Source: Gammaproteobacteria bacterium
GTDB lineage: Bacteria; Pseudomonadota; Gammaproteobacteria; Eutrophobiales; Eutrophobiaceae
Direction of reading: 5' to 3'
Assembly (NCBI GenBank): GCA_965243205.1
Contig: CBDEUK010000001.1
Location: 352,001-416,000 of the forward strand
Length of the DNA: 64,000 nt
In this document: in pieces, positions 59,922-64,000 of the stretch
How positions within the stretch are numbered: the stretch's first letter is position 1
Layout: each line of letters starts with the position of its first letter
Translations under genes and position numbers: made by a program
Notes under the pieces: generated by a model
What the model saw: the letters and a program-made list of their open reading frames with translations, nothing else
What the model was told of the DNA's origin: nothing
The model's database searches: none

Positions 59922-61709
59922 TTGGACACAATTTCTTCTCTCTCGCTGATTGTCGTATTGGGCATCACCTGCCAGTGGTTGGCATGGTGGGCTCGCTTAC
60001 CTGCTATTTTATTCTTACTGATCACAGGCATGCTCATAGGGCCAGTAACGGGTGTTTTAAATCCTGATCAATTATTTGGTGATCTTTTATTTCCCATGGT
60101 GTCTCTCTCCGTAGCCGTCATCTTATTTGAAGGCAGTTTGACCTTAAAATTTGATGAGATTAGAGGCTTGGGTTACGTGGTGCGTAACATGATCAGTATC
60201 GGCACACTGATTACCTGGATCGGAACCGCATTAGTCACTCATGCCTTATTGGATTTTCCATATGAGTTATCGTTTTTGTTTGGCGCAGTTGTTATCGTAA
60301 CTGGTCCTACTGTGATTGTTCCAATTCTAAGAAGTGTTAGGCCCAATGCAAAAATCGCTAATATCCTGCGTTGGGAAGGTATTACCATCGATCCCATTGG
60401 CGCTTTAATGGCGGTCTTGGTTTTTGACTTCATTATTTCCAAACAAAACGAATACGTATTTAGCAATATTCTGATCGTGTTTGGAACACTCATCTTTGTC
60501 GGCACTGTCGTTGGCATAATCGCAGCTCTCGCACTTAACTATGTTCTAAAACGTCATTTAATACCTGAGTATTTACGCAATGTATTTGCCTTAGCGTTGG
60601 TTTTTGCAGCATATGCTGTTTCCGATCTATTTGTTCATGAGTCAGGCTTATTAGCCGTCACCGTTATGGGTATTATTCTGGCCAACATGAAAGAAACGGA
60701 TATCGAAGACATACTTGATTTTAAAGAGACATTGAGTGTTCTACTCATATCTGGATTATTTATTATTTTGGCTGCACGTATTGAGTTTGAACAATTCCAA
60801 CAACTGGGTTTTCGATCGTTTGGAATTTTATTAGCGCTTATGTTCATCATTCGCCCGCTTAAAGTATGGATCTCGTCTATTGGCTCGGACTTAACCGTAG
60901 CTGAAAAAATGATGATTTCTTGGGTTGGGCCAAGAGGTATTGTAGCAGCAGCCATCGCTGCATTATTCGCTATTCGACTTGAAGAAGCGGGGTTTCCTGA
61001 AGCATCTTTATTAGTACCACTGACATTTCTTATCATTATTGGCACTGTCGTAATCCAAAGCTTAACCTCAAAACAAATTGCTAGCTGGCTAGGTGTACGT
61101 GAACCTGCTGCAACAGGAGTGTTGATCATTGGCGCGGGTAAAGTCGCAAGAGTGATTGGCAAAGCTATTCAAGAACAAGGATTTAAAGTCGTCATGACTG
61201 ACAGTAACTGGGAAAATACCAGTCTTGCACGTATGGAAGGCTTAATGACGTATTTTGGTAACCCTATATCTGAACATGCTGACCGTAATCTAGATTTAGT
61301 TGGCGTAGGTTCAATGTTGGGGCTATCTGGGCGTGCCAACCTTGATACATTAGCAGCTCTTCGCTTTCGTAACGAATTTGGTTCGAATAGCGTTTATGAA
61401 GTAAAAACTAGCCGTGAAGATATTGTTGGTGATAAACATATTGTTTCGACACGTCATCGTGGCTTCCAGTTATTTTCTAATGATATTACCTATGGAACCT
61501 TAGCTAACTGGATAGGCAATGGTGCTGAAATTAAAAAGAATCAATTAAGTAATACCTTTGATTACTCAAATTTTCAAGATAAATATAAAAACAATTCCAT
61601 TCAATTATTCGCAATTGATCCTAAAGGAAAATTACATTTTTACGTTGCTGAAAAAGAACTTAAACCTGAAGCCGGTTGGAGTATCATCAGTTTGATTCAA
61701 CCCGCATAA
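59922..61709 (+). CDS. cation:proton antiporter (CPA1/NhaP-like) with C-terminal RCK/TrkA-like domain
   Basis: VILFEGSLTL, TGPTV, LRWEG..IDP.G, GPRGIVAAA; IIGAGKVAR nucleotide-binding-like motif. Confidence 0.9.
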   Translation: MDTISSLSLIVVLGITCQWLAWWARLPAILFLLITGMLIGPVTGVLNPDQLFGDLLFPMVSLSVAVILFEGSLTLKFDEIRGLGYVVRNMISIGTLITWIGTALVTHALLDFPYELSFLFGAVVIVTGPTVIVPILRSVRPNAKIANILRWEGITIDPIGALMAVLVFDFIISKQNEYVFSNILIVFGTLIFVGTVVGIIAALALNYVLKRHLIPEYLRNVFALALVFAAYAVSDLFVHESGLLAVTVMGIILANMKETDIEDILDFKETLSVLLISGLFIILAARIEFEQFQQLGFRSFGILLALMFIIRPLKVWISSIGSDLTVAEKMMISWVGPRGIVAAAIAALFAIRLEEAGFPEASLLVPLTFLIIIGTVVIQSLTSKQIASWLGVREPAATGVLIIGAGKVARVIGKAIQEQGFKVVMTDSNWENTSLARMEGLMTYFGNPISEHADRNLDLVGVGSMLGLSGRANLDTLAALRFRNEFGSNSVYEVKTSREDIVGDKHIVSTRHRGFQLFSNDITYGTLANWIGNGAEIKKNQLSNTFDYSNFQDKYKNNSIQLFAIDPKGKLHFYVAEKELKPEAGWSIISLIQPA

Positions 61710-61733
61710 CAAAGTGATCACTTGCAATAAATA

Positions 61734-61755
61734 AACTGTGATCTAGTTCCCATTT
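61734..61755. promoter_or_regulatory. CRP-type binding site 1
   Basis: AACTGTGATCTAGTTCCCATTT matches 19 of 22 positions of the consensus AAATGTGATCTAGATCACATTT. Confidence 0.7.
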
Positions 61756-61814
61756 CAAACAAGTCACAACTAGAAATTCATATTCGCTTAATAGATCCTA
61801 TCTAAAATTATAGG

Positions 61815-61907
61815 TGTAGCTTTCCATGTGTAGTGAAGTAGTGAAACAGCATGGGGTTACTCTTAATCCCTCCTCCCCAAGAGTAGCCCCAAGCTTTTAA
61901 CTTTTTT
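61815..61907 (+). ncRNA. candidate small RNA 1 with CCUCCUCCC loop (boundaries inferred)
   Basis: TAAAAT -10 at 61803; 13-bp stem TGGGGTTACTCTT/AAGAGTAGCCCCA with one U-G pair, loop AATCCCTCCTCCCC, T-rich tail. Confidence 0.55.
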
Positions 61908-61947
61908 ATGTCTAACATTAATAGTGAAAAAATAATTGTTGACTTTA

Positions 61948-61963
61948 TGTGATTTAAATCACG
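61948..61963. promoter_or_regulatory. CRP-type binding site 2
   Basis: TGTGA-TTTAAA-TCACG. Confidence 0.7.
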
Positions 61964-61979
61964 CCTTTACGGCTCATTT

Positions 61980-62022
61980 TGTGAGAATAATCACAGATAT
62001 CCTGATCATGAATTACTAGACT
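61980..62022 (+). promoter_or_regulatory. CRP-type site 3 plus -10 element (class II geometry)
   Basis: Perfect TGTGA-GAATAA-TCACA centred at 61987.5; TAGACT at 62017-62022 puts +1 near 62029 and the site at -41.5. Confidence 0.75.
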
Positions 62023-62028
62023 TATTAC

Positions 62029-62107
62029 CGAAGACATCAATACCTCTCTATGCAAATATGCAGATCGGGATTGGCCACCCCCCCCCAGGCTGATTCCGAT
62101 TTTTTTT
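62029..62107 (+). ncRNA. candidate small RNA 2 with poly-C loop terminator hairpin (boundaries inferred)
   Basis: Stem ATCGGGATTGGCC/GGCTGATTCCGAT with three G-U pairs valid only on the + strand, loop A-C9-A, then T7; class II CRP promoter upstream. Confidence 0.65.
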
Positions 62108-62242
62108 ATCAAGCAATCGTTCAATTAAACCGCTATCAGGATATAATGTATTACATAATAATTGATTGTTAATACATTATTATTTATCAAAATGATGTGT
62201 AATAGACTACTATTAGTATTTTAATTTATTTGTTTCTCGATA

Positions 62243-64000
62243 ATGAACAATAGCAACTACAACAATGCATTAGCCATTGATACTGAATTACTTTGGTATC
62301 GAATAGAAGGGGTACTTGGCCAAGGTGCGTTTGGTATTACCTATTTGGCGCATGATATTTATTTGGATAGAAAAGTTGCGATTAAAGAATACATGCCTGG
62401 TGCGTTTTCAATGCGCATGGATGATCTAAATATTGAACCAATTTCCAGTGATCTCACTAATGATTATAAATCTGGTTTAGAACGTTTTTTAAGTGAAGCC
62501 AGAACTCTTACTAAATTCAAACATCCAAATCTCGTTCAAGTTTTCAATATATTTGAAGAAAACAATACCGCCTACATGGTAATGAGTTATGAACAAGGCC
62601 GTAGCTTAAAACAAATTTTAAAAACCAGAAAATCATTATCAGAAACAGAACTGATGAATTTATTAGTGCCGCTAATGGATGGCCTCGAAATGATGCATGA
62701 AAAAGGTTTTATTCATCGTGATATCAAACCAGGAAATATCTTTATCCGTGAAGATAACACGCCTGTACTACTGGATTTTGGATCGGCTAGACAAACTCAT
62801 TATTTCCTTAGTGATGATGATGAAGAGTCACAAGTAAAAACGCTAACAAATTTTGTTTCTCCTGGTTATACACCGATTGAACAATACAGTGGCAAGAGTG
62901 ATCGCCAAGGTCCATGGACAGATATTTATGCTTTAGGCGCTACATTATATAAATGTATTACTGGCAGAATGCCAATTGAAGCAGTGGAACGTAGTGAAAG
63001 CATTGTTCACGTCAGTAAAGATGAATATGTGAGCCTTTATGAAATTGCCCAAGGTAAATATTCTAAATCATTTCTAAATGCAATTGATCATTCCCTCGAA
63101 TTCAAAGCACAAAACAGACCTCAAACCATCAAAGAATGGCGAAGCGAATTTGGTATCTCGATTGAAGAGTTCGATACTATTGAGTTACCAGAAGAAAATA
63201 CAGATGAATTACAAAGCCCTCTGGATATTAATACAGAAAATTTAGAAACATTAGAAGCAACCACTTATCAAAAAACCATACCTGAAAATCATGAAGCTAC
63301 TACTGTTGCTGCTGAAAGCCGTTTCGTTAAGAAGAAAAATTCATCAATAAAATCATTTATAACTTATGCTACCGCAGCTACGTTATTAGTAAGTGTATTT
63401 GCTATCACTTATTATCAAATTAATAAACCTAATGATGAGATTAGCGAGACTGTTACTCAACGATTAAACACTATTCCAGATCCAATCATAATAGAAGAAC
63501 GGACTCCACCAGTTACTGAGCCAAATACATTAACAGAAATAACCATTCAAACTACTCCAATCGGAATTGATGAAGAAATAGAAAAAACTAACACCTTAAA
63601 AGAAAGAATCGCCAAACAAAAATCTGATAAAAAAGAAGAAATCGAGATATTACTTCGTTTGGCCGCTAAAGATATTCAAGCTAAACGATACACTTTACCT
63701 GAAAATAATAATGCTTATGAAAAATATCAAAAAGTTTTGGCAATAGATGTATCTAATGAAGATGCTAAAAATGGTATCTTATTTTTAACGGATAAGTTTA
63801 TGATTGCAGCTTATAGAGAAATTGAAAAAAATAATTTCGATGGTGCAAAGGAAAATATAGCCAAGGCTGATACCTTATCTCCAAACTTGGATGCCGTGAA
63901 ACGAGCTAAAGAACATCTACAAAGGAAACAGCGCCAATATTACGCTGCCCAACGTGCCGCTCAACGACCACCTGAATCTCAAGTTAGTAATGTTCCTTCA
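62243..64000 (+). CDS. membrane-anchored Ser/Thr protein kinase (3' truncated; absent from the ORF track)
   Basis: Manual translation: LGQGAFGITY, VAIKEY, HRDIKPGN, DFGSAR, SPGYTPIEQY, TM segment near 63355-63415, then TPR-like LPENNNAYEKYQKVL. Confidence 0.92.
   Translation, partial: MNNSNYNNALAIDTELLWYRIEGVLGQGAFGITYLAHDIYLDRKVAIKEYMPGAFSMRMDDLNIEPISSDLTNDYKSGLERFLSEARTLTKFKHPNLVQVFNIFEENNTAYMVMSYEQGRSLKQILKTRKSLSETELMNLLVPLMDGLEMMHEKGFIHRDIKPGNIFIREDNTPVLLDFGSARQTHYFLSDDDEESQVKTLTNFVSPGYTPIEQYSGKSDRQGPWTDIYALGATLYKCITGRMPIEAVERSESIVHVSKDEYVSLYEIAQGKYSKSFLNAIDHSLEFKAQNRPQTIKEWRSEFGISIEEFDTIELPEENTDELQSPLDINTENLETLEATTYQKTIPENHEATTVAAESRFVKKKNSSIKSFITYATAATLLVSVFAITYYQINKPNDEISETVTQRLNTIPDPIIIEERTPPVTEPNTLTEITIQTTPIGIDEEIEKTNTLKERIAKQKSDKKEEIEILLRLAAKDIQAKRYTLPENNNAYEKYQKVLAIDVSNEDAKNGILFLTDKFMIAAYREIEKNNFDGAKENIAKADTLSPNLDAVKRAKEHLQRKQRQYYAAQRAAQRPPESQVSNVPS

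Follow-up and report, generated by a model that had tools for sequence, protein, structure and literature searches.

Introduction

CyaR (RyeE, RF00112) is a small RNA (sRNA) with a conserved seed and a conserved terminator-loop sequence, which depends on CRP and Hfq and pairs with the Shine-Dalgarno (SD) sequence of ompX (PMC11795201). The cuckoo RNAs (RSs0680/CcsR1-4, SmelC397/NfeR1; RF02791) came to 321 in a screen of 2,689 genomes, all of them in 78 alphaproteobacteria (PMC4615179), and Pseudomon-1/ErsA (RF01719), which is dependent on sigma-22 (AlgU/T), is described as a functional orthologue of Spot 42 (PMC8395346). Here, we analyse a window of 64,000 nucleotides from a Gammaproteobacteria bacterium of the order Eutrophobiales (assembly GCA_965243205.1, contig CBDEUK010000001.1, positions 352,001 to 416,000), in which a cation/proton exchanger gene is followed by a gap poor in open reading frames (ORFs) and then by a Ser/Thr protein kinase gene. 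This gap (61710-62242, 533 bp, longest ORF 56 aa) holds two units on the + strand. In each, a CRP-type box and a weak promoter precede a short leader, and the leader runs into a GC-rich hairpin whose loop is C-rich and which is followed by a U tail. The twofold repetition, first noticed from the letters of the window, is real. We argue that the gap probably carries two tandem paralogues of a free-standing, trans-acting sRNA of about 80-95 nt that would be switched by CRP and would mask ribosome-binding sites. The family to which both copies belong is real, conserved and apparently uncatalogued; the regulator is of a well-known type and brings no new principle.

Results

The RNA family and its distribution

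Judged by comparison with relatives, the two units are old paralogues of one RNA family of about 90 nt. The original prediction, made from the sequence of the window, had proposed two sibling sRNA genes on the + strand, and this has held up, as one covariance model covers both and the family is found in 65 of 126 genomes of the order, which consists of a single family. The accompanying remark that the units have their architecture but not their sequence in common was wrong, since the relatives show paralogy. Syntenic loci in three related genomes hold these units, with the 5′ motif and the loop in common and with differing stems. The congener has the same order of exchanger gene, gap and kinase gene, and two more distant exchanger-bearing genomes also carry the RNA, one with two units and the other with one; the units of both start with (C/G)AAGACAUCA, like unit 2 of the window. 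The congener's unit 1 has 61-68% identity to its counterpart in another genus, against 49% to unit 2 of the same genome, which argues that the duplication predates these genera.

How far does the family extend? Plain DNA similarity, applied to 60 relatives, matched the congener alone, and unit 2 alone, so that covariance models were needed further out. The model R1, built from seven units, matched 37 of the 126 genomes, and the model R2, built from 34 hits, matched the 65 genomes given above, which correspond to 41 of the 81 high-quality genomes and to 26 of the 34 genera. Most RNA-bearing genomes have one copy. The host genome (2.79 Mb, 36.6% G+C) gave no copies beyond the two units in exact-motif searches and with the covariance models. 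Beyond the order, a search of 150 other families of the class, each represented by a single genome, returned five matches, four of them with the full anatomy and the fifth a different C-rich RNA lacking a CRP box. The RNA family is thus present in at least four other gammaproteobacterial families, and in two of those other orders it was found in 2/2 and 3/7 genomes, respectively. No RNA match was obtained at the exchanger locus of a Nitrospinaceae genome (L015). One relative, G141, has two equal-scoring copies on two contigs (L039, G141:C2:431293-434389, and G141:C6:43001-43097); Mutator-family transposase ORFs lie on either side of the L039 copy, which suggests that the RNA was duplicated together with a mobile element.

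Anatomy and structure of the RNA

A typical member reads, from 5′ to 3′, CRP box, 21 nt, -10 hexamer (TAGACT, TAAACT, TAGAAT or similar), 7 nt, 5′ hairpin, spacer, terminator and U run. In the 5′ hairpin AAGACAUCA pairs with UGAUGCUU and the loop carries ACCUCCC, the spacer between the two hairpins is A/U-rich (UAAAU), and the terminator hairpin combines a conserved CCCGG/CCGGG base with a 14-25-nt loop that contains CCCUCCUCCCCC. The word CCUCC occurs in the terminator loop of 32 of the 34 copies and in the 5′ loop of 24, and the terminator loop carries CCUCCUCCC in 21/34.

Covariation across relatives, which the original prediction had named as a check, is strong in the terminator helix. Indeed, 86.8% of its cells are paired, with changes on both sides at 12 of the 14 pairs; none of 500 shuffles was as good, and slid controls gave at most 56%. 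Among the 21 hits outside the set from which R2 was built, whose alignment was fitted to the model's own structure and so leans towards it, the proportion paired is 88.8% in the terminator helix and 82% in the 5′ helix, the latter with double changes at 9/9 pairs.

The CRP box and its regulator

TGTGA-N6-TCACA with at most one mismatch lies about 40 bp upstream, at class II distance, in 47 of the 55 copies examined, in line with the CRP boxes that the original prediction had placed before the units of the window. The box is perfect in 12/34 of the first copies and in 12/21 of the independent ones, and has at most one mismatch in 28/34 and 19/21, respectively. Boxes were sought over the 75 nt that precede the model start; by comparison, random windows of that length in the host genome contain a perfect box in 0.015% of cases and a box with at most one mismatch in 0.15%. 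Most box centres fall 38-43 nt before the model start, which places them at about -41.5/-42.5 from the inferred +1, in class II geometry.

In the host genome the CRP orthologue scores 333.6 bits, where the cut-off is 266; genes for a class I adenylate cyclase (CyaA, 402.7 bits) and for Hfq (102.8 bits) are present as well. Across the 126 genomes, in counts that are phylogenetically non-independent, 62 have both a CRP orthologue and the RNA, 26 have CRP without the RNA, three have the RNA without CRP and 35 have neither. The three exceptions among the 65 RNA-bearing genomes are 59-83% complete, and the RNA is absent from all five genera that lack a CRP orthologue. This co-occurrence is consistent with control by CRP and is not proof of it.

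Two side observations concern the regulator. The complete genome G026 holds, at G026:C1:958297-958698, a partial CRP match of 193.7 bits that is below the cut-off and has two stop codons inside; its RNA hit is weak (E 1e-4), and a crp gene may be decaying there together with its RNA. The host genome contains six perfect TGTGA-N6-TCACA boxes in total, that of unit 2 among them, all six outside ORFs of at least 150 aa. The other five (C1:340834, C2:391260, 476898, 1028307 and 2220301) may mark the core CRP regulon.

The two units of the window

Unit 2 retains a perfect box, the -10 hexamer and the 5′ motif. Its proximal CRP box, TGTGAGAATAATCACA (61980-61995), is centred at about -41.5/-42.5, in class II geometry; a distal CRP-type box with one mismatch, TGTGATTTAAATCACG (61948-61963), lies 32 bp upstream of the proximal box centre, and the hexamer TAGACT (62017-62022, + strand) follows the proximal box after 21 nt and is kept in relatives. 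The predicted RNA of about 79 nt (62029-62107, + strand; model match 62028-62108, 76 bits) runs from the 5′ motif GAAGACAUCA through ACCUCUC and a small hairpin (62051-62062) to the terminator. The loop A-C9-A that had been read in this terminator hairpin is borne out (62077-62087), but the hairpin itself spans 62063-62101 on the + strand, has 14 bp and is followed by T8 rather than T7 (U8 of the RNA, 62100-62107). The 3′ arm of the 5′ hairpin has been lost, and GAAGACAUCAAUACCUCUC is predicted to be unpaired. Folding of the + strand gave a z of -2.80, with 2/200 shuffles as good, against +0.50 on the - strand. Identity to the congener is 84% over 62014-62110, and the similarity ends at the U tract.

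The terminator loop of unit 2, a C9 homopolymer in the window, reads C7UC in the congener, and slippage can make such tracts vary. No variant of the C9 tract was seen in the one DNA contig that sequencing reads yielded there. Among sequencing runs, this stretch was present in four DNA runs of a single study and in none of three presumed RNA runs, which speaks neither for nor against expression. Runs of at least eight C occur at three places in the host genome.

The upstream part of unit 1 is organized differently. Its CRP-type box, TGTGATCTAGTTCCCA (61737-61752), has one mismatch and lies at about -70/-71 from the proposed start; TGTGAAACAGTTCTCA of the congener aligns with it, so that its position is conserved. 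The proximal, class II box is reduced to a degenerate remnant, TTTCAAACAAGTCACA (61753-61768), with two mismatches and an intact right half-site, and the position of the ancestral TAGACT now reads TAGATC (61792-61797). A candidate -10 hexamer, TAAAAT (61803-61808, + strand), lies about 70 bp 3′ of the centre of the box at 61737-61752, and the two together could give a class I promoter. The putative RNA of about 90 nt (61815-61907, + strand, ends approximate; model match 61814-61901, 62.5 bits) is diverged in its 5′ part and retains the canonical terminator loop. Its terminator hairpin is exactly as first described, with 13 bp at 61852-61891 on the + strand and the loop AAUCCCUCCUCCCC at 61865-61878, and is followed by U4 and U6 runs. 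CCTCCTCCCC occurs only once in the host genome. The 91-nt + strand fold has -26.7 kcal/mol and a z of -3.55 (1/200 shuffles as good), against a z of -1.45 for the - strand. The + orientation originally assigned to both units agrees with this stronger folding of the + strand, with the G-U pairs and with the T runs. The congener's unit 1 has the very same loop, CCCUCCUCCCC, between two stem arms that are entirely different, which argues for selection on the loop sequence.

Genomic context

The RNA family sits in at least four different gene neighbourhoods. The exchanger gene is its commonest upstream neighbour, immediately preceding it in the same orientation at 17 of 30 loci; at six others a beta-ketoacyl synthase gene stands there. 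Other neighbours encode a ROK kinase, a PstS-like binding protein, methyltransferases, GGDEF proteins and, in one case, Mutator transposase ORFs. The kinase gene is close by in 5/30 loci and convergent in three of these five; at the non-exchanger loci that have a downstream ORF, this ORF is convergent in 11/16. That the same unit of promoter, RNA and terminator recurs amid varied and often convergent neighbours argues for a free-standing gene. The general marks of a gene for an Hfq-type, trans-acting base-pairing sRNA, namely its own promoter, its own intrinsic terminator and conservation independent of the neighbours, were found across these neighbourhoods. A plain intrinsic terminator or leader attenuator was rejected, since the flanking genes vary and are often convergent, and since a conserved CRP box and -10 hexamer precede the RNA. 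No sign of the synteny of Spot 42 or ErsA was seen among the 33 neighbouring ORFs scanned in non-exchanger loci.

In the window, the gene directly upstream of the gap (59922-61709, + strand) encodes a Na+/H+ exchanger with a TrkA_N domain. The kinase gene (62243-64000, + strand, running past the window) is not a conserved cis partner of the RNA. It has a TATAAT hexamer of its own at 62142-62147, 3′ of the unit 2 terminator, and no recognisable SD sequence precedes its ATG (62225-62245). A palindrome just past the exchanger stop codon, GTGATCAC (about 61713-61724), which the congener has not conserved, was considered and set aside as not being a CRP box.

Comparison with described RNAs

The comparison with Rfam that had been suggested turned up no existing family. 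In Rfam 15 no family reached threshold when positions 61000-62800 of the window and eight typical loci were searched at E<=10; the sub-threshold scores, against the respective gathering values, were 19.8/79 for MicF, 27.5/50 for ErsA and 17.6/65.3 for CcsR1. We also found no description in the literature on the loop word and on CRP-dependent anti-SD sRNAs of Gammaproteobacteria, within a coverage that most subscription journals fall outside.

CyaR is the closest analogue in presumed action and in design, with no detectable homology. It measures 87 nt, against 80-95 nt here, and the E. coli cyaR promoter (TCACA, 21 nt, TATCAT, 7 nt, +1) has the same class II spacing as this family. The CyaR seed, CCACCUCCUUA, is anti-SD-like and its terminator-loop motif, UCUCCC, is C-rich, and both features are paralleled here. 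However, the host lineage and the synteny are different, the seed lies here in the 5′ hairpin loop, the terminator loop is far larger, and there is a tandem duplication. The CyaR model gave no hit at E<=10 in the window or in the eight typical loci, and the reciprocal search of the E. coli cyaR locus with R2 gave 7.6 bits (E 0.19), which is no match.

The cuckoo RNAs are built, as here, of adjacent hairpins with variable, compensating stems and the loop motif CCUCCUCCC. They also have in common with this family the resemblance to the anti-SD sequence, the tandem copies and the several genomic 'nests'. Nevertheless, in the cuckoo RNAs CCUCCUCCC is required in each of two to four adjacent loops, whereas here it is confined to the terminator loop (21/34, as above). 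The 5′ loop of this family carries CCUCC(C) instead, unit 1 of the window has one motif loop and unit 2 none, and a CRP promoter is present. Membership of the cuckoo/CcsR1 family was therefore rejected, the motif not being in every loop and the score (17.6 bits, E 4, one locus only) being far from the gathering value of 65.3. A separate element, L050 (G210:C130:38472-41559, from another gammaproteobacterial family), has CUCCUCCCC, CUCCUCCUCCC and CCUCCUCCC in successive hairpins and no CRP box, and is possibly a true cuckoo-like RNA outside Alphaproteobacteria.

For ErsA, no CRP box is reported in the available portion of the source (PMC8395346). Of the Rfam families below threshold it came closest, scoring 27.5 bits (E 0.1) against unit 2 of a related genome, and the likeness is confined to the CCCGG...CCGGG terminator, the C-rich loop and the U tail, the 5′ part being different. 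With this score on one locus against a gathering value of 50, and no match on the window, membership of the ErsA family was rejected as well. The 6C RNA of Actinobacteria and RsaE/RoxS of Firmicutes are further sRNAs whose C-rich loops pair with G-rich ribosome-binding sites; they belong to unrelated phyla, have other regulators and gave no Rfam match here.

Candidate targets

Targets were predicted with RNAduplex on 3490 crude ORF starts, the top ranks being partly false starts. G-rich extended SD sequences are rare among these starts (GGAGGAGG 2, GGGGAGG 1 and GGAGGGG 2), and the genes behind them encode a pyrroloquinoline quinone (PQQ) dehydrogenase of the methanol/ethanol family (TIGR03075, 617 bits), the ammonium transporter AmtB (amtB) and NrdA (nrdA). 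The plausible candidates, namely the PQQ dehydrogenase, amtB, nrdA, pntA, aroQ and DUF4870, were followed into five relatives. The dehydrogenase site AGAGGAGGAGGUCAUG is identical in 5/5 of the RNA-bearing relatives examined, and the GGAGGGG of nrdA is kept in 4/4. In the specificity control, GAGGAGGAGG was kept in four of seven dehydrogenase-bearing genomes without detectable RNA, and the other three had close variants. Its conservation in the five RNA-bearing relatives is thus uninformative on the RNA, and we offer the predicted targets as leads only and claim none of them.

The dehydrogenase gene has features of its own. The protein is 76-92% identical across the order (G000 contig 2, 209582-209644; loci L072-L076 and L098-L104), and most genomes keep the extended SD sequence GAGGAGGAGG invariant. 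Further upstream is a conserved block that resembles GAGATCAACACATGATCAAC and could be where a regulator binds.

Discussion

How would such an RNA work? A class II CRP-dependent promoter would drive the typical member, so that a rise in cyclic AMP (cAMP) would turn the RNA gene on through CRP. The exposed C-rich loops would then mimic the anti-SD end of 16S rRNA and, probably with the help of Hfq, block the translation of selected mRNAs by pairing with their G-rich ribosome-binding sites. CCUCC is the core of the 16S rRNA anti-SD sequence. Exposed C-rich loops act on SD regions in CyaR (PMC11795201), and such an action has been proposed for the cuckoo RNAs (PMC4615179). We propose SD masking on the strength of the loop word and of these two precedents, and by this analogy pairing with ribosome-binding sites is a plausible mechanism. 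In the genus of the window, the modules of the RNA seem to have been split between the copies: unit 2 would rely on its perfect box, its unpaired 5′ motif and a C9 terminator loop, and unit 1, with the 5′ module and the proximal box gone, on its canonical terminator loop and the box at about -70.

Several observations weigh against this proposal. Unit 1 has lost the 5′ module of the family and the proximal CRP box, and it is the most divergent copy seen, with 35-45% identity to all others; given these losses, its expression in the host genome may be weak, or the copy may be in decay. A terminator loop without CCUCC occurs in just two of the 34 copies, unit 2 and its counterpart in the congener, which have a C run instead. 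Covariation lends the 5′ helix weak support in the first set, where 79.4% of its cells are paired, few have double changes and the sequence is mostly conserved, and the lean of the 21-hit alignment towards the fitted structure has to be kept in mind for both helices. A consensus scan of the gap found no + strand sigma-70 promoter and no terminator. This blank may be traced to the scan itself, since its terminator rule accepts loops of 3-8 nt only and activator-dependent promoters can do without a -35 element. As to the regulator, 26 CRP-bearing genomes have no detectable RNA, and a single genus accounts for 23 of the 35 genomes that lack both. The specificity control on the dehydrogenase site belongs here too.

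The divergence of unit 1 raises the question of whether unit 2 alone works, unit 1 being a paralogue in decay, with a hairpin that now chiefly ends the exchanger mRNA as its intrinsic terminator. The loss of the 5′ motif, the TAGATC at the -10 site, the two mismatches in the proximal box and the position of unit 1, 143 nt past the exchanger stop codon on the same strand, all speak for it, and we regard it as a serious though doubtful alternative. Indeed, the loop CCCUCCUCCCC is the same in the congener despite the replaced stem arms, a selection for which a plain terminator has no need, and the box at 61737-61752, with its single mismatch, is conserved in position and has TAAAAT at class I distance. 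Carried to its end, the same thought would make hairpin 1 the exchanger terminator and hairpin 2 a cis attenuator of the kinase leader, with no trans-acting RNA at all. All three genes are co-oriented in the window and in the congener, as this would require, but we find it hardly credible: conservation with the congener goes no further than the U tract, which lies 135 nt upstream of the kinase ATG, the kinase is near in only 5/30 loci and convergent in three of them, and the unit of promoter and RNA is also found beside unrelated genes and before convergent genes. This combination of antiporter terminator and kinase-leader attenuator, which the original prediction had itself named among its possible refutations, fails on that recurrence.

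If both units are transcribed, the RNAs might still act otherwise than by SD masking, binding a protein or another RNA as a sponge for a G-rich sRNA or for a C-rich-RNA-binding protein. No target passed the specificity control, the loops of 14-25 nt are near-invariant across genera, beyond what an 8-bp seed needs, and that of unit 2 is a homopolymer. We nevertheless think a sponge unlikely. Hfq is present, and the A/U spacer and the U tail fit what we take to be an Hfq-type RNA. Moreover, CCUCC is the anti-SD core, and the loops of CyaR act on SD regions (PMC11795201), as is proposed for those of the cuckoo/CcsR RNAs (PMC4615179). The boxes, for their part, could be read by another regulator of the CRP/FNR superfamily and the signal would then not be cAMP; the host genome has 12 more matches with a cNMP domain below the CRP cut-off, one of 64.7 bits. 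TGTGA-N6-TCACA is the canonical CRP palindrome and not of the FNR type, CyaA is present, the RNA is missing in all five CRP-less genera, and CRP accompanies it in 62/65 genomes, which makes another reader of the boxes quite improbable. Two tandem paralogues of a CRP-switched sRNA that masks ribosome-binding sites thus remain the likely explanation of the gap.

A bolder version of this explanation is rather unlikely as a whole. The family could be a deep-branching counterpart of CyaR, in which a CRP-switched mimic of the anti-SD sequence, ancestral to much of the Gammaproteobacteria or repeatedly invented there, uses the cuckoo word CCUCCUCCC and has its copies divide the job. If true, unit 1 would read GGAGG-type sites (PQQ dehydrogenase, nrdA) and the C9 loop of unit 2 would read G-run sites (amtB), and cAMP status would be wired to one-carbon/alcohol oxidation, nitrogen uptake and DNA precursor supply.

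In conclusion, our study points to an sRNA family that, with its clean covariance model, its class II CRP promoter and its phyletic link to crp, lends itself readily to a new Rfam entry. To our knowledge, the CRP-controlled sRNAs described so far come almost entirely from enterobacteria (CyaR, Spot 42), and we know of anti-SD 'cuckoo' RNAs only from Alphaproteobacteria; the family described here would carry both themes into poorly studied, mostly uncultured Gammaproteobacteria. Its diverging tandem copies would offer a natural case of sRNA subfunctionalisation, and the family would mark where the cAMP regulon of these organisms reaches into post-transcriptional control.

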